Shown here: positions 29,696 to 56,033 of the stretch, in pieces
Layout: the number at the start of each line of letters is the position of its first letter
How positions within the stretch are numbered: the first letter of the stretch is position 1
IMG/VR virus record: IMGVR_UViG_3300049844_000087
Coordinates: 14,423-78,422 of that record
DNA length: 64,000 nt
DNA from: a virus
Taxonomy: Duplodnaviria > Caudoviricetes
Direction: 5' to 3' (one strand)
Translations under genes and position numbers: made by a program
Notes under the pieces: generated by a model
Databases searched by the model: none
Seen by the model: only the letters and a program-made list of their open reading frames with translations
Told to the model about the DNA's origin: nothing

Positions 29696-29974
29696 ACCTG
29701 TAATTGTTATATCGGACTTGACAGTCGTTTAAAAAATCCTTTACTTTGAGGGGTAGGGGAGTCTTATTCACCTATTGCTACTAAATACTCAGAACTTAAA
29801 TAATACTCTGAATGTATAAGATCAGAGTATTAATACTCTGTTATCCATTTTCGCAGGAATTCGACATATTTCAAATTCCTAGCACCCAAAGGTTTGTTCC
29901 GCCGCTCGGCCATGTAAAATTTACCTATTTTATTTTTCTATTGACTAAAAACGAGAATCCGCAGAAGATAAGTT

Positions 29975-30169: not shown

Positions 30170-30247
30170 TGCGGGATGGACTGGAAGTAGTGCCAGCTTA
30201 GGCTCATAACCTAAACGATGTGAGTGCAAGTCTCACTCCCGCAACCA
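30170..30247 (+). tRNA. tRNA with CAT anticodon, initiator(fMet)-like
   Basis: TGCGGGA/TCCCGCA acceptor plus ACCA; TTAGG-CTCATAA-CCTAA anticodon arm; GTGAG-TGCAAGT-CTCAC T arm. Confidence 0.9.
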
Positions 30248-33635: not shown

Positions 33636-34472
33636 ATGAATGTCGATTACGAATTCCTTGGTGGACAAAATTCTGACGAAACCGTAAGAGCCTATAAAAC
33701 GGATCTTGAGCAGTTTCAAGTTATTGCTGGTGGAGAGTTGACTAGAGGCGGAGTCATCCTTTTTAGGGATGAGTTGCTCAAACAAGGACTGTCCCCTTCT
33801 ACAGTTGCCCGAAAGATGTCTACAATTCGTAGTTACTGTGAATTCCTGCGAGGCCAAGGAAAACTTAGCATTGATCCCTTTGCTGGCGTCAAAGCACCTA
33901 AAGTGTCAGTGTCCGAGCCTACTCAAGCTTTTACCGACGATGAAGTTCGTAAAATGTTCAAAGTAGTAGAGAAGACGCAAAAACCAGTAGAGCGTGAGCG
34001 AGATAAGCTGGTATTGGGATTTTTGTTTTATGCAGGATTGCGCAGATCAGAGATTGCTAGTCTAAAATTCTCTGACATCAAAGAACTTGAAGGCCAAATA
34101 GTTATTCGAGTATTTGGTAAAGGCGGAAAGTACAGAATGATTCCTGCGCACCCAAAGCTCGCCGAAATGCTGTTACCACATTTGGTAAGCACTCCGTTGT
34201 GGCCTAAAGCATCCGATAGATCCCTTCTAGATATTAGCGGCGGAACAATTTACGCCATTGTAAAGAAATATGCAAAAATGGTTGGAGTTACGAGAAGCGT
34301 GTCTCCTCACTCTTGCAGAGCAACGGCAATCTCTCAGTTGTTAGAAAACGGAGAATCGCCAAGAAACGTTGCAGATTTTGCAGGTCATGCCAGTGTCAAT
34401 ACGACTATTGGCTCTTATGACAAAAAACGAGATGGAATTAAAAACAGCGCAGCAATGAAGTTGCGATTTTAA
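33636..34472 (+). CDS. Tyrosine recombinase (XerC/D-like)
   Basis: SAM-like N-domain (T..RKMSTIRSY..FL); YAGLRRSE, GKGGK, HSCR, GHAS..TT..Y catalytic set. Confidence 0.93.
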   Translation: MNVDYEFLGGQNSDETVRAYKTDLEQFQVIAGGELTRGGVILFRDELLKQGLSPSTVARKMSTIRSYCEFLRGQGKLSIDPFAGVKAPKVSVSEPTQAFTDDEVRKMFKVVEKTQKPVERERDKLVLGFLFYAGLRRSEIASLKFSDIKELEGQIVIRVFGKGGKYRMIPAHPKLAEMLLPHLVSTPLWPKASDRSLLDISGGTIYAIVKKYAKMVGVTRSVSPHSCRATAISQLLENGESPRNVADFAGHASVNTTIGSYDKKRDGIKNSAAMKLRF

Positions 34473-48529: not shown

Positions 48530-48689
48530 TAATTTATGACACCATGCGTCATTTAGGTGTGCAAAAATTACAAAAAGTAGTAGAACTATCAAGAACTTAT
48601 TACACACTATAAAAAAAATTTTTCAATCAGAATTTTGACCCGATGGAACCAAACTTTCGGGGCGGTTGAAATCTTGACGCAGTGCGTCA
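48415..48689. repeat. Three 15-bp palindromes TGACGCA-N-TGCGTCA
   Basis: 48415 TAACGCAGTGCGTCA, 48537 TGACACCATGCGTCA, 48675 TGACGCAGTGCGTCA. Confidence 0.7.
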
Positions 48690-48799
48690 TCTAATATAAT
48701 ACAAAAAAATTTTGTGACAGACTACTAGGCACAGGTATTGGGCTCGGCACTGCAAGGCAGCTATCCCCCCGTAACCACTAGGGAATCCCATATTGATAC

Positions 48800-48827
48800 A
48801 TTGATGATAATGTATATTATCGTCAGA
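48800..48827. other. dif-like tyrosine-recombinase site
   Basis: ATTGATGATAA-TGTATA-TTATCGTCAGA: 11-6-11 layout, core ATAATGTATATTAT identical to E. coli dif, arms nearly symmetric. Confidence 0.7.
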
Positions 48828-49025
48828 GTCTCATTTTGAGACGCTCATTTTGTTTTTTCTTTTTTATCTTATAAGGTCTTGAAAGTTTAGGATTGAAAGC
48901 CTTATGCGCTCGACTAGATACTGTCTAGACGGCTTTCGTCTGTCTTGCAAGCCGTTGACTTTCGTCTTGAAACCGCTGTCAGTCTCATTCTGAGAATTTA
49001 TTTTTGATTTTTTTGCTTTCAAGCC

Positions 49026-49052
49026 TTAAGTCCTGTCAATTGACGCCGATAA
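49026..49052 (+). promoter_or_regulatory. sigma28-type promoter 1
   Basis: TTAAGTCC-11-GCCGATAA. Confidence 0.7.
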
Positions 49053-49099
49053 GTATAAGGTCAAGACAAGCAAGTCTTGCAAAACAAAGGAGTATCAAA

Positions 49100-49351
49100 A
49101 TGAAACGAAATTCAATCAACGGACATCTTGTTTCAATATGGAACGAAATCGTTGACCAACTAAGTCTGTCTCAATATGAGTCAACTATGGGTGGCGACAT
49201 GTCTTATAAGTCTAAGGCGGAAAGGGCAATGCAAGTGTCTCGAAATAAGACGGTTCATGCCTTATGTCTCGAATTGATAAACGTCTATGATTCTCATTTC
49301 GGGACAAGTGCCTTAACTGTCTCAAATAGAGACTTTTCTGATTTTGAGTGA
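49100..49351 (+). CDS. Early hypothetical protein
   Basis: ATG 49100 after AAAGGAGTATCAAA. Confidence 0.7.
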   Translation: MKRNSINGHLVSIWNEIVDQLSLSQYESTMGGDMSYKSKAERAMQVSRNKTVHALCLELINVYDSHFGTSALTVSNRDFSDFE

Positions 49352-49383
49352 TTTTCACGGTCTGTCAATATAAGGCTTTCGTC

Positions 49384-49415
49384 AAGGCGGCGGTTTCAAG
49401 ACCGCCGTTTTATTT
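49384..49415 (+). terminator. Intrinsic terminator
   Basis: GGCGGCGGT-TTCAAG-ACCGCCGT then TTTTATTTTT. Confidence 0.7.
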
Positions 49416-49606
49416 TTGCTTATCCTTATCAGTCCTGAAAGCCGTTGACCTGTCTTGTCTGTCCTTATGCCTTTCGGTCTGTCTTATCCTGTCTTGTCCT
49501 TATGTTTCCTTATACGGTCTTAAGACTTTCAATTTATTTTTTGCTGTCTAAGGCATTGAATTCAAGGTCGAATCTCATTTTGAGAATAAATAGTTGACTT
49601 TTTCTC

Positions 49607-49633
49607 TCAAGTTTTATAAACTGAAACCGATAA
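49607..49633 (+). promoter_or_regulatory. sigma28-type promoter 2, overlapping sigma70-like TTGACT-17-TAAACT (49594-49622)
   Basis: TCAAGTTT-11-ACCGATAA. Confidence 0.8.
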
Positions 49634-49681
49634 GACAGTATAAGCAAGTCAAGACGGCTTGCAAAACAAAGGAGTATCAAA

Positions 49682-49855
49682 ATGAGAATACCTAAGTTGC
49701 CAATTGGACAAGCGAACGTGTGTATCAAAAAGATACGGACAGCGAAAGCGCAAGGCTGCAAAATGCTGAAAGGCTGGAAAGCGATGAAATCGGCTCAAAT
49801 TGAGACGGCTTTCAATACGCCAGTCCTTTGTATCAAAGTGAGACGTGCGGCATAA
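49682..49855 (+). CDS. Early 57-aa basic protein
   Basis: Below track cutoff; MRIPKLPIGQANVCIKKIRTAK... after the conserved SD. Confidence 0.7.
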   Translation: MRIPKLPIGQANVCIKKIRTAKAQGCKMLKGWKAMKSAQIETAFNTPVLCIKVRRAA

Positions 49856-49884
49856 GTTTTTTTTGATTTTTTTGCTTTCAGGTC

Positions 49885-49911
49885 TCAAGTTTATTTTTGA
49901 TTGACCGATAA
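49885..49911 (+). promoter_or_regulatory. sigma28-type promoter 3
   Basis: TCAAGTTT-11-ACCGATAA. Confidence 0.8.
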
Positions 49912-49961
49912 GACAGTATAAGCGGCGAAATGATTCGACCGCAAAAACAAGGAGTATCAAA

Positions 49962-50756
49962 ATGAGTCAGATTCAAGTTTTCGACAAAAATGCAGGTTTC
50001 AACGTATCAGAACGATACAAGGCTGTTAACACGGCGACTTTGGTGTCTCAATTCGAGGCGGCTGGCTATACAGTGTCTCAAGTTAAGACGGCTCGTGTTC
50101 GCTTGCCTGAAAAGCAAGGCTTTCAAAAACACCTTATCAGATTGAGACATCCGTCGTTGACAGTCAATGCGCTTTCAGGCTTGACGCCCGAAATCGTTGT
50201 CTCAAATTCATACGATGGCACGGCGGCTTTCCGTCTCATGATGGGAATTTTCCGCATTGTCTGCTCGAACGGTCTCATTGTGGGACAGGCTTATGAGTCA
50301 ATTCGAGTCGTCCACGTTGGCGACGCATTGACTAAGGTCTTGCAAGCCGCAAATCGAGTTCAGTCTCAAACTGATACGATTGCGTCTCAAATCGAGAAAT
50401 GGTCGTCAATCCAATTGACCGATGCACAAGCGTCTCAATTTGCGACAGCAGCAAGCAAGTTGCTTTTGCCGTCTCAAAGTGATACAAACGTGATTCCATT
50501 GGTTCGTTCTGAGACACTTTTGAAAGTCCGCCGTCTTGACGATAGGTCTCAAGACCTTTGGACCGTATTCAATCGAATTCAGGAAAATGCTTTGCAAGGC
50601 GGTCTGTCTTATACTCGACTCGGCGGTCAAGGTCAAGTCCGAAACATGACGGCACGTCGAATCAATTCGATTGACCGATCAATCGAAGTCAATCGGGCCT
50701 TATGGGATCTTGCGTCTCAGATTGAGACAAGCGGTGGCATTATTCAAGCCGCATAA
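49962..50756 (+). CDS. DUF932/DUF945 family protein
   Basis: SERY......L......G....Q...R...K..FQKH.IRLR...PEIVV.NSYDG..AF.LM.GIFR.VCSNGLIVG. Confidence 0.85.
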   Translation: MSQIQVFDKNAGFNVSERYKAVNTATLVSQFEAAGYTVSQVKTARVRLPEKQGFQKHLIRLRHPSLTVNALSGLTPEIVVSNSYDGTAAFRLMMGIFRIVCSNGLIVGQAYESIRVVHVGDALTKVLQAANRVQSQTDTIASQIEKWSSIQLTDAQASQFATAASKLLLPSQSDTNVIPLVRSETLLKVRRLDDRSQDLWTVFNRIQENALQGGLSYTRLGGQGQVRNMTARRINSIDRSIEVNRALWDLASQIETSGGIIQAA

Positions 50757-50771
50757 GGTCAAGACCTTGAA

Positions 50772-50805
50772 ACGGCGGCGCTTTCGAGCGCCGTCGATTT
50801 TTTTG
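50772..50805 (+). terminator. Intrinsic terminator
   Basis: ACGGCGGCGC-TTTCGA-GCGCCGT hairpin then T-tract. Confidence 0.65.
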
Positions 50806-50814
50806 ATTTTTGCC

Positions 50815-50841
50815 TTAAGTTTTATTTTTTTGCGCCGATAA
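50815..50841 (+). promoter_or_regulatory. sigma28-type promoter 4
   Basis: TTAAGTTT-11-GCCGATAA. Confidence 0.85.
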
Positions 50842-50885
50842 GCATAAGGTCAAGGCATTGACGCCGAGACCGAAGGAGTATCAAA

Positions 50886-51173
50886 ATGAGAACATTCAAG
50901 TTTATAAGGTTTCAAGACTTGACAGGGACAAGCGGCGTCGGTCACGTTGCAAGCGGTCAAGTTGACGCAAGCGGCTTGACTCAAGTCCGCTGGACCGTTG
51001 ACGCAAGACTTGCGGACGGCTCGACTCGCAAGATCAATTCAGTGACTCAATTTGAGACGTGGACTGATGCGGTCTTGCTTCACGGTCACGGCGGACGGAC
51101 TGTCTTAGTTTGGGACGACACCAACGAAACTGTCTCAGATTTAGACATCTTAGGCTTGAAAGCCGCCGCATAA
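50886..51173 (+). CDS. Conserved phage hypothetical protein
   Basis: MRTF...R..D.TG.SG.G.VA.G......G....RW......HGHGG.T..VW. Confidence 0.75.
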   Translation: MRTFKFIRFQDLTGTSGVGHVASGQVDASGLTQVRWTVDARLADGSTRKINSVTQFETWTDAVLLHGHGGRTVLVWDDTNETVSDLDILGLKAAA

Positions 51174-51202
51174 GTTTTTTTTGATTTTTTTGCTTTCAGG
51201 TC

Positions 51203-51229
51203 TCAAGTTTTAAAACTTTCGACCGATAA
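51203..51229 (+). promoter_or_regulatory. sigma28-type promoter 5
   Basis: TCAAGTTT-11-ACCGATAA. Confidence 0.8.
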
Positions 51230-51277
51230 GACAGTATAAGCAAGTCAAGACGGCTTGCAAAACAAAGGAGTATCAAA

Positions 51278-52024
51278 ATGAGATTGTTAACTGAAGCCCA
51301 TGCCAATGCGAAAACCGCAAAAAATGCCTCAAAAGGAGATTTTCTGTCCTATATTTTGCATTTTGCGCCTTATAAGCTTTCAGGCGTCAACGTCTGTCCA
51401 ATGGCAAGCCGTGGATGCGCCGCCGCTTGCCTTAACACGGCTGGACGTGGCCGTTTCGATTCGATACAACAGGCTCGTATCAAAAAGACACAACGATTTT
51501 TTAAAGACCGTCAAGGTTTCCTTGCGGACTTAGTTAAGGACTTGCAAGCGGTCGAGCGCAAGGCAAAAAAACACGGCTTGCAAGCGGTCGTGAGACTCAA
51601 CGGGACAAGTGACATTGACTGGACCGCTGTCAAGACAGACGACGGTCAAAACGTGTTCGAGCGTTTCAAAACGATACAGTTTTACGACTATACCAAAGTG
51701 ATACGCCGTCTCGAAAAGATGCGTCTCAATCCGATACCTAATTATCATTTGACATTTTCTCGAAGTGAGTCAAATCATGCTGACTGTCTCAAAGCGATAC
51801 AGTTAGGTTTCAACGTTGCCGCCGTGTTTCAAACTGAGGCGTTTCCTGAAACCTTTGAAAGCCGTCCAGTGATTGACGGCGACTCTCACGACTTGCGTTT
51901 CCTTGACTTGAAACCGCTGGACGGTCAAGGCGCTTTCGTTGCCTTGAAAGCCAAAGGACAGGCAAAAAAAGACCTTTCAGGTTTCGTGATTCAACTTGAG
52001 ACAGCCATCGGAAAGGTGGCTTAA
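51278..52024 (+). CDS. GP88-family protein (radical-SAM-related)
   Basis: NAKT.K, VCPMASRGCAAACL, RLNGTSDI, QFYDYTK, YHLTFSRSE, DGD.HDLRFLD. Confidence 0.85.
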   Translation: MRLLTEAHANAKTAKNASKGDFLSYILHFAPYKLSGVNVCPMASRGCAAACLNTAGRGRFDSIQQARIKKTQRFFKDRQGFLADLVKDLQAVERKAKKHGLQAVVRLNGTSDIDWTAVKTDDGQNVFERFKTIQFYDYTKVIRRLEKMRLNPIPNYHLTFSRSESNHADCLKAIQLGFNVAAVFQTEAFPETFESRPVIDGDSHDLRFLDLKPLDGQGAFVALKAKGQAKKDLSGFVIQLETAIGKVA

Positions 52025-52025
52025 T

Positions 52026-52217
52026 ATGAGACAAATCAAATTAAAACAGTCAATGATTCAAGATGAGACACTATGCTGTCCGTACTGCATGGACGAAGTG
52101 TCTCAAGATGATACAGGTTGTTGTGGCGAGTCGTCGGCTCATTTTGAGAAAGCTTATGTGACTCAAGATGAGACATATCTTGACTCTGAGGTCGAAATCA
52201 TTGACGACTCAAATTGA
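52026..52217 (+). CDS. Small Cys-rich acidic protein
   Basis: CCPYC...GCCGES; ATG 52026. Confidence 0.6.
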   Translation: MRQIKLKQSMIQDETLCCPYCMDEVSQDDTGCCGESSAHFEKAYVTQDETYLDSEVEIIDDSN

Positions 52218-52243
52218 TTCAAAAATAAAGTTGACCGAAAGTC

Positions 52244-52270
52244 TCAAGTTTTAAAACTTTCGACCGATAA
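52244..52270 (+). promoter_or_regulatory. sigma28-type promoter 6
   Basis: TCAAGTTT-11-ACCGATAA. Confidence 0.8.
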
Positions 52271-52334
52271 GGATAAGGACAGCAAAAAAACCGAGACCGT
52301 CAAGACGGCGGTCTCAAAACAAAGGAGTATCAAA

Positions 52335-52814
52335 ATGGGATATACGCATTATTTCACTTTCAAAAAAGCGCCGAAAGGCAAGGCGTCTCAAATCGAGACG
52401 AACTATCAAAAGGCATTGATTGACTGTCAACGTATCATTTTGGCATATAGCAACGTCAACGGCGGTCTGTCCGGTTTCAGTGCCCATACCAAATTGGGAC
52501 AGTATGGCGGTCTCAATGTGAATGGCTCAAAAGAAGACGGTCACGAGACTTTCGTCTTGCGTGAACACTTTTCTCAAAATGAGTCATTCAATTTTTGCAA
52601 GACCGCTCGAAAGCCTTATGATACGGTCGTCACGGCTTGCCTTATCGTCTTGTCTTATCGACTCGGCGCTTGCATTGACGTGTCAAGCGACGGCGACGCA
52701 ACGGACTGGACCGAAGGCTTGCGGCTTGCGCAAAAAGTTCTCAAATTGAAACGATTACAAATTCCATCAGGTGTCTCAAATCGAGACAACGATTCAATGG
52801 ATGAGTCGGCTTGA
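52335..52814 (+). CDS. Conserved phage hypothetical protein (MGYTHY family)
   Basis: MGYTHY...HETF...FNFCKTARKPYD..V.A.L...SSDG. Confidence 0.75.
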   Translation: MGYTHYFTFKKAPKGKASQIETNYQKALIDCQRIILAYSNVNGGLSGFSAHTKLGQYGGLNVNGSKEDGHETFVLREHFSQNESFNFCKTARKPYDTVVTACLIVLSYRLGACIDVSSDGDATDWTEGLRLAQKVLKLKRLQIPSGVSNRDNDSMDESA

Positions 52815-52878
52815 TACTCCACGCCCCTGTCTCATTTTGGGGCAGGGGCTTTCTTAACATAAGCAAAGGAGTCTCACA

Positions 52879-53073
52879 ATGGAACGTATCAAAATGCAAC
52901 GAAGTGTTTGGTGGCCTATCAAATTGAAACAAGGTCAAACTGTCTCATTTCAAGGCAAGACTTATAAGGTCGTGTCTCAAACTGAGAAACCTTCTGATTC
53001 ATGGTGTTTCAGAATGAGATACTACACGTCTCTAATCGAGACAGAAATGGAGTCTCAAAATGGGATCAACTAA
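52879..53073 (+). CDS. Early hypothetical protein
   Basis: SD AAAGGAG. Confidence 0.6.
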   Translation: MERIKMQRSVWWPIKLKQGQTVSFQGKTYKVVSQTEKPSDSWCFRMRYYTSLIETEMESQNGIN

Positions 53074-53665
53074 TATCGAATTGATACAAAAAGGAAAGCT
53101 GTCTCGAAATGAGATTTACGACGCTTTCAAAAATCAGCAAGATCAAGACCGTCTCGAAAATGGACATCAATCGGGATATTCTGGCGACTTTCAAACTGTC
53201 TCAAAAGTAGACTATCGACTTGATCAAGTCTTTACGTCTCAATCTGAGGCACATGATTTTTGTTTGAAACATGCCTCAAAATGGGACACTGTGGTGGCCG
53301 TCTATTTTCTTGACCTGAAAGTCGAAAGCAAGCGCATTGATAAGGCAAGGCAAGCGGTCAAGGCATTGACTCAAGACCTTGCAAGCCTTGAATCGACGCC
53401 GCTTGATAAGTCCAGCGGTTTCAAGACTTGCGGCGCTTGCAAGTCTCGACTTTCAATGAGTCACGTCAAGCGGTCTTGCTGTCCAGTCTGTCAATCGGAC
53501 TTAAGACCGAAAGCCTTAGTCAAGCGCATTGAAAGCCTGAAAGCAAAAATCAAGGCGGCGCAAGACAGGCTCGAAAGTCTTGTCAAGTCCGAAAGGCAAA
53601 AAGCATTGACGAAAGCAAAACCGTCTCAATTTAGTACGATGCTGGCTGGCTGGGGAGCGTGTTAA
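53060..53665 (+). CDS. Early protein with Zn ribbon and coiled coils
   Basis: GH.SGYSGD, CGACKS...CCPVC; ends AGWGAC. Confidence 0.7.
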   Translation: MGSTNIELIQKGKLSRNEIYDAFKNQQDQDRLENGHQSGYSGDFQTVSKVDYRLDQVFTSQSEAHDFCLKHASKWDTVVAVYFLDLKVESKRIDKARQAVKALTQDLASLESTPLDKSSGFKTCGACKSRLSMSHVKRSCCPVCQSDLRPKALVKRIESLKAKIKAAQDRLESLVKSERQKALTKAKPSQFSTMLAGWGAC

Positions 53666-53684
53666 TTTGAGACACAAAAATCCC

Positions 53685-53712
53685 TTAAGTTTTTGAGCGT
53701 TTCGACCGATAA
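53685..53712 (+). promoter_or_regulatory. sigma28-type promoter 7
   Basis: TTAAGTTT-12-ACCGATAA. Confidence 0.7.
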
Positions 53713-53743
53713 GGTTTCAGACAATAAACAAAGGAGTATCAAA

Positions 53744-53992
53744 ATGAGTCAATCAAATGTTATCAAGTTGAATGATCGTCGAGCAAGTCCAGTCAATGAG
53801 GAAAGTCTTTTGCTGGTCAACCTTGCGCAAGTATTGATCGAAGTCGTGAGGCAACACGGAGCCCACACGACATTGACAGCGGTCCAAGGCATGATTCAAG
53901 AGGCACAAAAACAAGTCCGCACCGAGCGTCAACACAAGCCGACAAAGACCAATCTACCTGTCTCAAAACGAGCCGTTGGGGGTGCCAAGTGA
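53744..53992 (+). CDS. Early hypothetical protein
   Basis: ATG 53744 after the conserved SD. Confidence 0.65.
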   Translation: MSQSNVIKLNDRRASPVNEESLLLVNLAQVLIEVVRQHGAHTTLTAVQGMIQEAQKQVRTERQHKPTKTNLPVSKRAVGGAK

Positions 53993-54198
53993 AATGTCTC
54001 ATTGTGAAGCATACCCTTGGCGGTCGTTCTTGGTACATGGTCCAGCAAGGCGCTTTGACCTTATCGACTCCGCTCGACACTTTCGAGCAAGCTACCGAGT
54101 GGATCAAGTCAATGGCTGGTGTCCAGCGTCTCGGATGCTACCGCATAAGCGACGACTTGACAGCGGTCCATTTTGAAGAGTCGAAAGGAGTCTCATAA
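53989..54198 (+). CDS. Early hypothetical protein
   Basis: GTGA overlap. Confidence 0.5.
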   Translation: MKCLIVKHTLGGRSWYMVQQGALTLSTPLDTFEQATEWIKSMAGVQRLGCYRISDDLTAVHFEESKGVS

Positions 54199-54500
54199 TG
54201 GAACAGCCTAAGCTTATCGCAAGGCTCGAAGAGATTGTCAAAGGTATTGACAGACATCAACGAGTCAATGCGTCGGACATGCCAATGCTGGCACAGTTTT
54301 TGAAAGTAGAGATTGCAAGGCTTAAGCGTATCAATTCAGCGCAAACAGTCGAGCGCATGAGACAAATTTCGGAGCGGCTTAGCGACTTAAGTCCAAAGAT
54401 TGACAGCGGTCGTTTCAAGTATTCCGAAAAGCAAGAAAAGGACAGGCTTGTCAATGAGTATCTAGAATTGGAACAACAAATTGAAGGGGTTTCAAAATGA
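54198..54500 (+). CDS. Early coiled-coil protein
   Basis: SD AAAGGAG, TAATG overlap. Confidence 0.6.
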   Translation: MEQPKLIARLEEIVKGIDRHQRVNASDMPMLAQFLKVEIARLKRINSAQTVERMRQISERLSDLSPKIDSGRFKYSEKQEKDRLVNEYLELEQQIEGVSK

Positions 54501-54715
54501 AACGTAATGCGTATCTCTTTGAGACAGATGCCTTTCAAGTGAGAGTTTACAACGAAGCCGAGACCGTTGACATGTTTGGTCAAGACTACCTCGAAGAGTA
54601 CGGTCACACGGTCCCGATTGAATTGCTCGAAAGGTATCGAAAGGCTTTCGTCGAAATGCAAGCCGTACAAGATCAATTGAGAGCCATTATAAAGACTCAA
54701 GAAAAGGAGTATTAA
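54497..54715 (+). CDS. Early hypothetical protein
   Basis: ATGA overlap. Confidence 0.6.
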   Translation: MKRNAYLFETDAFQVRVYNEAETVDMFGQDYLEEYGHTVPIELLERYRKAFVEMQAVQDQLRAIIKTQEKEY

Positions 54716-54716
54716 A

Positions 54717-54938
54717 ATGATACTAATTAAAGGTCAATCCAAATATGCCAGAGTTGAGCGTCTTGTCCATAAGTTAGACGATGACATACTGTCTTGGATC
54801 GAGTCACTTGAGGAGTCGGGTTTCGTGATCTTGTTCACCAATCTACCGTCTCACATTAATACACATGAGGTGTACGCCGCAATTCTACTTGATCAGTTCG
54901 CAGATATGTATCTACCTGAGACATCTACAGGTCACTAG
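54717..54938 (+). CDS. Early hypothetical protein
   Basis: SD AAGGAG. Confidence 0.55.
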   Translation: MILIKGQSKYARVERLVHKLDDDILSWIESLEESGFVILFTNLPSHINTHEVYAAILLDQFADMYLPETSTGH

Positions 54939-54975
54939 GGTGACATTTTTTTATTGTAATACTTGATAATTTTGC

Positions 54976-55003
54976 TAAAGTATTTCAATCAACCTACCGA
55001 TGA
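54976..55003 (+). promoter_or_regulatory. Possible variant sigma28 promoter
   Basis: TAAAGTAT-12-ACCGATGA, -10 inside CCTAC...GTAGG hairpin. Confidence 0.45.
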
Positions 55004-55027
55004 GAGTAGGAGAAAGGCAAGGGACCA

Positions 55028-55816
55028 ATGTTTAAGTTTGAATCAATAGACCAATTAGACACAAAGGGCAACACAAGCTGGCTCATTGAGGGACTTTTGC
55101 CAGAGTCGTCAACTTGTCTCGTGGCAGGTGATCCCAAGACGAGAAAGTCTTGGTTGGCAGGGGAATTGCTAGTCAGTATTGCCACAGGTGAGAAGTGTTT
55201 CGGAGTTTACAACGTTGTCAAGCAAGGTCGAGTGATGATGATACAAGGCGAGGACAGCGGTGCAATCATTCGAGAGCGTCTAGAGCAAATCAATCGAGCC
55301 AAGCAAGGCAGTGCCAAGGCATTGAAAGAGAATGTTTCAATCGTGGCAGGTCAAAGCTTTGCGCTTGATAATGATGAACACTTTGAGGCATTGCGCTTGC
55401 AAGTCTTAAAGGAAAGGCCATTGCTTATCATTTTAGACCCTTTGGTCCGTCTCATTCCGAACACTGCCGAAGGTTCAACGTCTCAGATGTCTAAGATTTT
55501 GACAAAGCTTCGTCACTTGCAACGTGACAGCGGGACATCAATCATGCTGGTGCATCACAACAAGACATCGAAGTCTAAGAATGCCGCTGACAATATCCGA
55601 GGCAGTTCAGACTTGCGGTCCTGGTATGATGCGGCGTATTTCCTGACCAAGCCAGTCGGACACGTCACGCAAATTGATTTTGAATTCAAGGCTTTCGGCG
55701 AGCAACCTGCTTTCTTCTTTGAATTAAAGAATGCGAACACTGGACTTGCGCCGATGGGACTTGTATCAATGGAAGACATTAGAAAGTTGGTTAAAAATGA
55801 AAACGATATTGTATAA
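55028..55816 (+). CDS. AAA_25 / RecA-fold (RepA-helicase-like) ATPase
   Basis: WLIEGLLP, GDPKTRKSW, MIQGED, IILDPL, LVHHNK, IRGSS. Confidence 0.85.
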   Translation: MFKFESIDQLDTKGNTSWLIEGLLPESSTCLVAGDPKTRKSWLAGELLVSIATGEKCFGVYNVVKQGRVMMIQGEDSGAIIRERLEQINRAKQGSAKALKENVSIVAGQSFALDNDEHFEALRLQVLKERPLLIILDPLVRLIPNTAEGSTSQMSKILTKLRHLQRDSGTSIMLVHHNKTSKSKNAADNIRGSSDLRSWYDAAYFLTKPVGHVTQIDFEFKAFGEQPAFFFELKNANTGLAPMGLVSMEDIRKLVKNENDIV

Positions 55817-56033
55817 ACGACACATTGCATTCCATATTGGAGACGTTTTACTTGTCTCATTTTCAGACAAGCCTTCTCGTTTTCAAGTTGTTGAAGTTAA
55901 CAAGCGCAAAAACATTTTAAAAATTGAGGTATTAGAGGATCATTACAAAGATCCGTTTCAAGTTGGAGCAGTCGTCGATATAGGAACGCAGATTTTTAAA
56001 AAGTATTGGTTTTTTAATTTTGAAAACCGCTAA
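55797..56033 (+). CDS. SH3/KOW-like small protein
   Basis: FHIGDVLLV; ATG 55797. Confidence 0.5.
   Translation: MKTILYKRHIAFHIGDVLLVSFSDKPSRFQVVEVNKRKNILKIEVLEDHYKDPFQVGAVVDIGTQIFKKYWFFNFENR

Follow-up and report, generated by a model that had tools for sequence, protein, structure and literature searches.

A conserved palindrome with dif geometry in a clade of large phages, a candidate core site of their Xer-like recombinase

Does a phage that carries a dif-like sequence use it with a recombinase of its own, does it use it to enter the host chromosome, or does the resemblance to dif belong to some other kind of element? The question is raised by a 28-bp site at positions 48800-48827 of the window (the whole stretch of phage DNA analysed here, 64,000 nucleotides). 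A first-pass annotation had offered two answers, the cognate site of the recombinase encoded at 33636 or an attP for integration at the host dif. We found no published description of this clade or of the site in the literature. Our own reading is that the palindrome is quite possibly, if somewhat short of probably, the core recombination site of the single Xer-like recombinase of the phage, serving dimer resolution or circularisation.

Genomic setting

The window corresponds to bases 14423-78422 of a single, incomplete phage contig of 78,422 bp (G000). A complete relative, G003 (117,954 bp, with direct terminal repeats), has ~45 kb (G003 34-79 kb; L099-L101) that are absent from this contig and that encode a family-A DNA polymerase, a primase-helicase, an SF2 helicase, a Mre11-like phosphoesterase, ribonucleotide reductase, a ligase, a GroEL-like chaperonin and the portal protein. 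In the window the virion genes are on the minus strand, up to ~29.3 kb, and a plus strand block extends from 30.2 to 61.8 kb with genes for a class-IV aminotransferase, thymidylate synthase, the recombinase, an exonuclease, peptide deformylase, DUF932, GP88 and rIIA/rIIB. No repressor-integrase switch and no lysogeny or partition genes were seen among the ~40 proteins scanned.

The divergent switch region between both blocks (window 29760-29850) contains an array of TCAGAGTAT/ATACTCTGA boxes that is conserved in G003 (L038, 109912-109939) and rearranged in L057 (6140-6250). A perfect 13-10-13 palindrome at 29799-29834, considered as a rival recombinase site, is part of this TCAGAGTAT array and was rejected as what looks like an operator array, not a conserved core, because its arrangement differs in L057 and it is absent in L060. 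Just downstream of the switch a tRNA-Met (CAT) gene at 30170-30247 extends over the GTG start listed for the aminotransferase ORF (30224).

The dif-like site itself is located inside a 570-bp non-coding gap (48530-49099) between plus strand genes. It can be described in two ways:

48800-48827, no strand: 28-bp site with dif geometry, left arm ATTGATGATAA, centre TGTATA, right arm TTATCGTCAGA
48802-48825, no strand: 10-4-10 palindrome TGATGATAAT-gtat-ATTATCGTCA, the part under dyad-symmetry selection

The complete 28-mer, ATTGATGATAATGTATATTATCGTCAGA, is the sole copy in the window even when up to 3 mismatches are allowed (shuffled sequences gave an expectation of 0), its central 14-mer occurs once at 0 mismatches, and neither a second copy nor an invertible segment was found in the window. 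As reference we used the 28-mer of the E. coli dif, which is printed verbatim in 11 papers (for example PMC3025954). Positions 8-21 of the phage site are identical to it (14/14), with 18/28 identities overall. The 11-6-11 layout and the shared central 14 bp of the first-pass annotation are both correct. To the dif of Bdellovibrio bacteriovorus HD100, as printed in PMC2731167, the identity is 16/28. The same annotation called the arms near-perfect inverted repeats; inverted copies they are, but "near-perfect" was generous because the 11-nt arms agree at just 8/11 positions, while in the 10-4-10 reading TGATGATAAT and ATTATCGTCA pair at 9/10 positions with one T.G. The distinct XerC and XerD arms of dif are not found here. 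The right arm TTATCGTCAGA agrees with the XerD arm TTATGTTAAAT at 6/11 positions and has C at position 25, and against the HD100 dif it has only TTAT in common with the XerD arm, without the conserved A25; the XerD arm is the best-conserved part of dif and A25 is highly conserved (PMC2731167).

Conservation across the clade

The window had no DNA match in the phage collection and its protein matches were all distant. The site was nevertheless located at the syntenic non-coding place in 12 related sequences (13 with the window). These are G001, G002 and G003, four short contigs reached via the downstream 83-aa gene or an upstream anchor that excludes the site, two long ENA/Logan contigs reached gene by gene starting from the recombinase, and the distant, near-complete genomes G005, G011 and G012, with recombinases 41, 37 and 39% identical (the structural proteins of G005 are 30-84% identical). 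Every sequence holding the independent upstream anchor also holds the palindrome. The first-pass annotation had made its proposal depend in part on conservation of the site in relatives, and in these 12 it is conserved. Counting outward from the 4-nt centre, the pairs of the palindrome are:

Positions 2-5: invariant
Position 6: G-C; T-A in G005
Position 7: T.G in 11/13, C-G in 2/13
Position 8: A-T or G-C
Position 9: G-C or C-G; A.C in one lineage
Position 10: T-A or G-C

The skeleton ATAA-N6-TTAT and its spacing are invariant in 13/13 sequences, even in G005, whose arms have otherwise changed. Compensatory two-sided changes of the arms were observed at positions 6, 8, 9 and 10. One lineage (L035, L036, L053, L061 and L062) has mismatches at positions 9-10, and its dyad is therefore only 8 bp. 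The non-Watson-Crick pairs at positions 1-8 are all T.G on the plus strand with two exceptions, both at position 8 (G002 and G011). The central 4 nt take six forms (GTAT, ATAC, GCTT, AGGT, AAGA and AAAC), never palindromic and always 4 nt long. GTAT and ATAC are reverse complements of each other between unchanged flanks, by two transitions or by inversion of the loop within an inverted repeat, which is compatible with all the models discussed below. The exact E. coli dif core is present in only 7/13 members, counting either orientation, and the centre varies freely, so the identity with E. coli is incidental.

A single matching locus per genome was found in the 5/5 genomes searched whole (0.1-1.0 expected). 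The site is 10-18 kb downstream of the recombinase gene and on the same strand in the 9/9 genomes holding both, and within a non-coding gap of 0.6-1.6 kb in every genome. Actually, this genome has 372 short palindromes and this is the only one that recurs in the distant G012 with identical 8+8 arms and spacer. To judge from these alignments the palindrome is not a chance occurrence. Its sequence, spacing and dyad symmetry are all deeply conserved, which suggests either that a dimeric protein recognises it or that it forms a hairpin.

Some other hits were discarded. L017, L069, L070, L072 and L073 were chance pattern matches. In L071 (G007; IMGVR_UViG_3300029959_000029, 51 kb) ATCCCCCCGTA, a motif also found beside the site in the window, is followed 58 nt on by a 7-6-7 palindrome, CGCATAA-TGTACC-TTATGCG. 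This genome has no tyrosine recombinase and belongs to an unrelated-looking phage, and we treated it as chance or unrelated; the palindrome may be fortuitous or a site served by the host Xer.

The recombinase

The enzyme is encoded in the same plus strand block as the site:

33636-34472, plus strand: Xer-like tyrosine recombinase, 278 aa, with R136, K162/K165, H225, R228, H251 and Y261 all present

That the phage encodes an Xer-like recombinase of its own, as initially annotated, is confirmed by its domains (Phage_integrase and SAM_1), its profile matches and its intact catalytic residues. The best profile matches were XerC, XerD and XerA, at 116-140 bits and thus far under the equivalog cut-offs of 220-335, and the nearest solved structure is the Pyrococcus XerA (4a8e). 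The catalytic residues are invariant in an alignment of 19 family members that reaches down to 36% identity. Homologues numbered 405 at E<=1e-10, many on contigs of 97-124 kb, and from these matches the recombinase is a clade-wide gene. It is always found among nucleotide-metabolism and replication genes and not at a lysogeny switch, flanked by tightly packed coding sequence that leaves no free intergenic space. Two genomes were checked for further enzymes, G003 and G005, and each has exactly one tyrosine recombinase. The nearest cellular relative is a chromosomal Xer-like gene of 364 aa, 38% identical (L097, ENA ERZ23491473 scaffold_12, 384 kb), with housekeeping neighbours (ftsH and tilS-like and thioredoxin-reductase-like genes). 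Since this homologue sits in a chromosomal housekeeping context, "Xer-like" is a fair description, and its lineage may be the cellular source of the phage recombinase. An integron-like reading was rejected, the recombinase being too short for an integron integrase and not adjoining the palindrome array described below.

A core site for the phage enzyme

The sequence features of an Xer core site are found at this locus, namely inverted arms of ~11 bp around a centre of 6-8 bp, ATAA...TTAT as the most conserved part, one site per replicon, and a recombinase with the R-K-H-R-H/W-Y residues in the replicon. The dif and XerA sites have the same organization, two inverted arms around a 6-bp centre with ATAA/TTAT adjoining it (PMC5357621; PMC2731167). 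With one copy per genome in a clade whose members each carry one Xer-type recombinase, the site is the best candidate target of that enzyme. Among single readings a cognate core is the one best supported, given the Xer-specific skeleton, the occurrence in one copy, the clade-wide intact enzyme and the lack of another conserved site that could be its target. The proposal of the first-pass annotation is thus strengthened in its conservation, its dif geometry, its single copy and its co-occurrence with an Xer-like enzyme, a support that is one of association.

If the palindrome is such a core, two recombinase monomers would bind the two inverted arms and two sites would synapse. By analogy with dif, the strand cuts would be expected 6 bp apart, at the boundaries ATAA|T and A|TTAT. 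With two directly repeated copies, exchange would resolve dimers or head-to-tail multimers of a circular replication intermediate; alternatively, it would circularise a terminally redundant genome once injected, much like Cre at lox in P1. Speculatively, the ~100 nt conserved on one flank of the site could act as an accessory sequence like those of cer and psi. In this scheme the binding of the arms, the cleavage positions and the biological role are inferred.

Several points weigh against the cognate-site reading. The link between recombinase and site is co-occurrence within one clade, where everything co-occurs, and the gene does not adjoin the site, unlike lox and cre, difSL and xerS or the Tyrovirus site. 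The plus strand T.G pairs are tolerable in an RNA hairpin, and the dyad of one lineage is limited to the 8 bp noted above. The conserved block is promoter-proximal and probably transcribed, with a T-run after the site in the close family. Palindromes of similar size are also common in this genome (43 combinations of spacer and arm with arms >=10, at ~35 distinct places).

Flanking elements and alternative readings

The following elements surround the site:

48674-48700, plus strand: promoter-like TTGACG (48674-48679) and TATAAT (48695-48700), 15 nt apart
48705-48799, plus strand: conserved non-coding block left of the site, with CACTG (48748-48752) and the invariant ATCCCCCCGTA (48763-48773)
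48781-48846, plus strand: extended imperfect hairpin with the site as its apex, built with two flanking 15-bp GTCTCA-N3-TGAGAC copies (RNAalifold and RNAfold prediction)
48785-48799, no strand: degenerate left copy of the 15-bp palindrome, ATCCCATATTGATAC, 9/12 positions, overlapping the -35-like TTGATA
48828-48842, no strand: first perfect GTCTCA-N3-TGAGAC, left edge of the palindrome-rich island
48848-48865, plus strand: T-rich tract after the hairpin, a terminator-like or unwinding element, in 10/10 close relatives and absent in G011 and G012

The first GTCTCA palindrome does begin at the next base after the site, as annotated, with the perfect GTCTCATTTTGAGAC at 48828. Allowing <=2 mismatches, the 15-mer palindrome has 3 copies left of 48828 and 62 from 48828 on; 59 of these are within 48828-55854. 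The island, at 48828-55868, starts one base after the dif-like site. The copies occur within genes and over start codons (AAGGAGTATCAAAATGAGA). Also in this region, promoter-like modules of the form CT(C/T)AAGT..-N-GCCGATAAG are repeated before small early genes (window 49026-49051; repeats D2, D7 and D9), each followed by a near-identical AAAGGAGTATCAAAATGA start region. The site had been placed exactly at the boundary of the early region, with an abrupt change in sequence character. Palindrome density does shift there and the GC skew drops from about +0.2 to about +0.05, but the orientation of the genes does not change. With regard to a terminus position such as that of dif, the cumulative GC skew climbs steadily through the site, and the skew tracks the direction of transcription in this phage.

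The strongest of the alternatives, which we consider unlikely although worth keeping in view, is a DNA regulatory or origin element unrelated to the recombinase. In its regulatory form a dimeric regulator would bind the site as its operator, at a promoter flanked by two GTCTCA-N3-TGAGAC sites. In its origin form it would belong to a transcription-activated origin made of promoter, palindrome, T-rich unwinding tract and GCTATCC-type iterons, within the longest non-coding stretch that the genome has. In the window the site is indeed spanned by a good sigma-70-like promoter, TTGATA-16-TATTAT (10/12 positions), and a 15-bp palindrome lies to either side, but the promoter is not conserved in relatives (G001 has a 15-nt spacer and ATGAGA as its -35). 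The non-coding gap around the site in every genome suits this reading, and so would the GCTATCCG(C/T)TGA or GGATAG boxes right of it in G003, L035, L061 and L062, although the half-site is unlike the iterons. Fixed spacing, a variable spacer and symmetric changes of the arms suit any dimeric DNA-binding protein; no candidate regulator was identified, and the retention of ATAA-N6-TTAT where other arm positions changed (G005) is a specific signature of Xer sites. Phages whose replisome, like that of this phage, includes a family-A DNA polymerase and a primase-helicase (T7, for example) use origins composed of a promoter and AT-rich DNA; the GC skew, however, gives no origin signal at the site.

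As for the repeats themselves, the iteron-like GCTATCCG(C/T)TGA is found in 3-4 copies right of the site in L014 (G003, minus strand, ~1240-1400) and L035 (1040-1260), again in L061 (13940-13990) and L062 (14970-15010), and in a weaker version in the window (48910-48980). A ACTGGATAGT box is also conserved right of the site in several relatives. Both could be origin- or partition-type DNA. The half-sites TGATAAT/ATTATCA resemble those of Fur, but with a spacing of 4 rather than 1. A sigma-28 promoter reading of the CGATAA arms was discarded because neither strand has a TAAAGTTT-like -35 at the appropriate distance.

Slightly less probable again is an RNA element, a stem-loop within a conserved leader or small transcript of ~150-190 nt whose start would lie immediately right of the TGACGCAnTGCGTCA palindrome. 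The end of the transcript in the close family would be the T-run, the hairpin acting as terminator, attenuator or processing signal at the entry to the early island. The conserved block left of the site gives this reading some weight. In a four-sequence alignment of 48660-48875 the column identity is 77%, compared with 32-61% for the flanking proteins, and the block is still recognisable in G005, G011 and G012. It follows a -10-like TATAAT that within alignment A1 is found in the window and G003 only, and at a similar distance also in G012. In the promoter to which this box would belong the two elements are spaced by 15 nt, and the -10 is poor in G001 and G002. A palindrome, TGACGCAGTGCGTCA (48675-48689), overlaps this promoter and is invariant in the four-sequence alignment A1. 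Copies of the TGACGCAnTGCGTCA palindrome are at window 48535-48550 and 48675-48689, just upstream of the conserved block and one of them over the promoter-like TTGACG, and it is likewise just upstream in all close relatives (L001, L002, L014, L034, L035, L061 and L062).

The compensatory changes of the stem, the freely variable loop and the nearly exclusive plus strand T.G among the non-canonical pairs at positions 1-8 also fit an RNA hairpin, but the loop is always exactly 4 nt, and the invariance of positions 2-5 despite 32-61% identity of the neighbouring proteins goes far beyond what a terminator stem needs. A composite hairpin with a direct U-rich tract is predicted in 5/7 close-family sequences and a scan flags a terminator-like site. 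The extended hairpin is likewise predicted in 5/7 close relatives and absent in G011 and G012. A stem-loop followed directly by a U-tract, as in intrinsic terminators, is not kept across relatives but found in the close family only, and there as the composite hairpin. L062 has its T-run 10 nt away from the site and lacks the second hairpin, and G011 and G012 have neither T-run nor flanking 15-bp palindromes. For these reasons the terminator-like flanks and the adjoining GTCTCA palindrome are, by this comparison, specific to this lineage. The 158-nt stretch folds with no more than ordinary energy (z = -0.52), and Rfam and tRNA/tmRNA scans of the non-coding gap gave sub-threshold noise only.

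Very improbable, finally, is an IMEX-like attP, in which the site would mimic the host dif and be integrated at the chromosome terminus by the host XerCD or by the phage enzyme. The inner arms and the centre are dif-like, the left-arm TGATAA equals the inner XerC arm of the B. bacteriovorus HD100 dif (PMC2731167), and degenerate XerD arms are frequent among the attP sites of IMEXs (PMC3025954). The host could plausibly be Bdellovibrio-like because a recombinase homologue 40% identical is named from a Bacteriovoracales MAG. Against this, the right arm has neither the XerD consensus nor A25, the whole site matches the HD100 dif at just the 16/28 positions given above, and the six variants of the centre among relatives mean that no match to one host dif is possible. 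A scan of one genome per species (185,579 species, GTDB) for the arm-plus-core pattern gave four unrelated palindromes only, in Bacteroides, Campylobacteraceae, Ruminococcus and Chloroflexota, and thus no integrated or host copy. The MAG with a 78%-identical recombinase has no such site, and a generic dif pattern, tried as a way to the dif of the MAG that contains a related contig, had no more matches than its control. Known IMEXs have no recombinase of their own, whereas this phage encodes an intact Xer-like one. The genomes, of 110-118 kb, have their own replisome and rIIA/rIIB, with no lysogeny genes seen among the proteins scanned. Integration at the host dif, the second proposal of the first-pass annotation, is thus not supported, and the scan of species genomes, along the lines of the host-chromosome search that it recommended, did not recover the site.

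Comparison with known systems

Returning to the cognate-site reading, one of the two nearest mechanistic models is Cre/loxP of P1, a phage-encoded single tyrosine recombinase with one palindromic site that serves cyclisation and dimer resolution and not chromosomal integration. The arrangement is different, since loxP is 13-8-13 and adjoins cre, whereas the phage site is 11-6-11 and at a distance from its gene in 9/9 genomes (10-18 kb). P1 is besides a temperate plasmid prophage with partition genes, none of which were seen here, and Cre is not Xer-like in sequence, unlike the phage recombinase.

The single-recombinase Xer systems, above all XerA/dif, are the other. Archaeal XerA/dif, XerH/difH and XerS/difSL likewise use one Xer recombinase on imperfect inverted 11-bp arms with a 6-bp centre (PMC5357621), and in many archaea the Xer gene and the site are apart, as in this phage. 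These systems are chromosomal and near the replication terminus, whereas the candidate system described here is phage-borne. The proteobacterial dif, including that of E. coli, shares the 11-6-11 geometry and the ATAA/TTAT beside the centre, and in this phage also the central 14 bp; it has distinct XerC and XerD arms and two recombinases, in contrast with the mutually inverted arms, the one recombinase and the unconserved centre of the phage clade.

The nearest parallel in print is another putative phage 11-6-11 site, predicted in silico only, that of gp50 in Tyrovirus, large Bacillus phages in which the site is conserved among relatives and which have conserved Xer-type tyrosine recombinases, one of them co-transcribed with lytic genes (PMC9703825). 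There the site is immediately downstream of the gene and has perfect arms, and the phages carry three recombinases together with plasmid-maintenance genes; here it is distant, with imperfect co-varying arms and a one-sided conserved block, in phages with their own replisome and no visible lysogeny genes. We detected no sequence relationship between Tyrovirus and this clade.

The conserved block recalls the plasmid sites cer and psi, in which, as at the phage site, a long stretch of conserved non-coding DNA borders the Xer core on just one side. In cer the 280 bp with the accessory sequences impose resolution selectivity (PMC5357621). However, cer and psi use the host XerCD with ArgR, PepA or ArcA, and no sites for accessory proteins were identified at the phage locus. 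The left block may equally well be a transcript as an accessory sequence.

Implications

Bringing these parts together, and with less assurance than for the core site itself, we tentatively propose that this clade of 110-118 kb phages could have a self-contained Xer system within its lytic DNA metabolism, with one enzyme, one site of dif geometry 10-18 kb away and a one-sided accessory block, that would resolve or circularise replicating genomes. To our knowledge a Cre/lox-like function has so far been found only in temperate plasmid prophages, and if the proposal is true the same function would here be made from Xer/dif parts. Compared with Tyrovirus, the new elements are the distance between gene and site, the one-sided conserved block, the imperfect co-varying arms and the non-temperate-looking background. 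The case also illustrates that a site may match the E. coli dif core incidentally; what is conserved is the Xer geometry and not the central hexamer.

If the pairing of enzyme and site holds, it would provide a compact orthogonal recombinase/site pair, whose natural variants of the arms (window type and G005 type) and of the centre could serve as tools. For the phages themselves, with hosts that are probably Bdellovibrio-like, it would mean that dimer resolution or cyclisation is a conserved step of the lytic cycle across a group of large uncultured phages.
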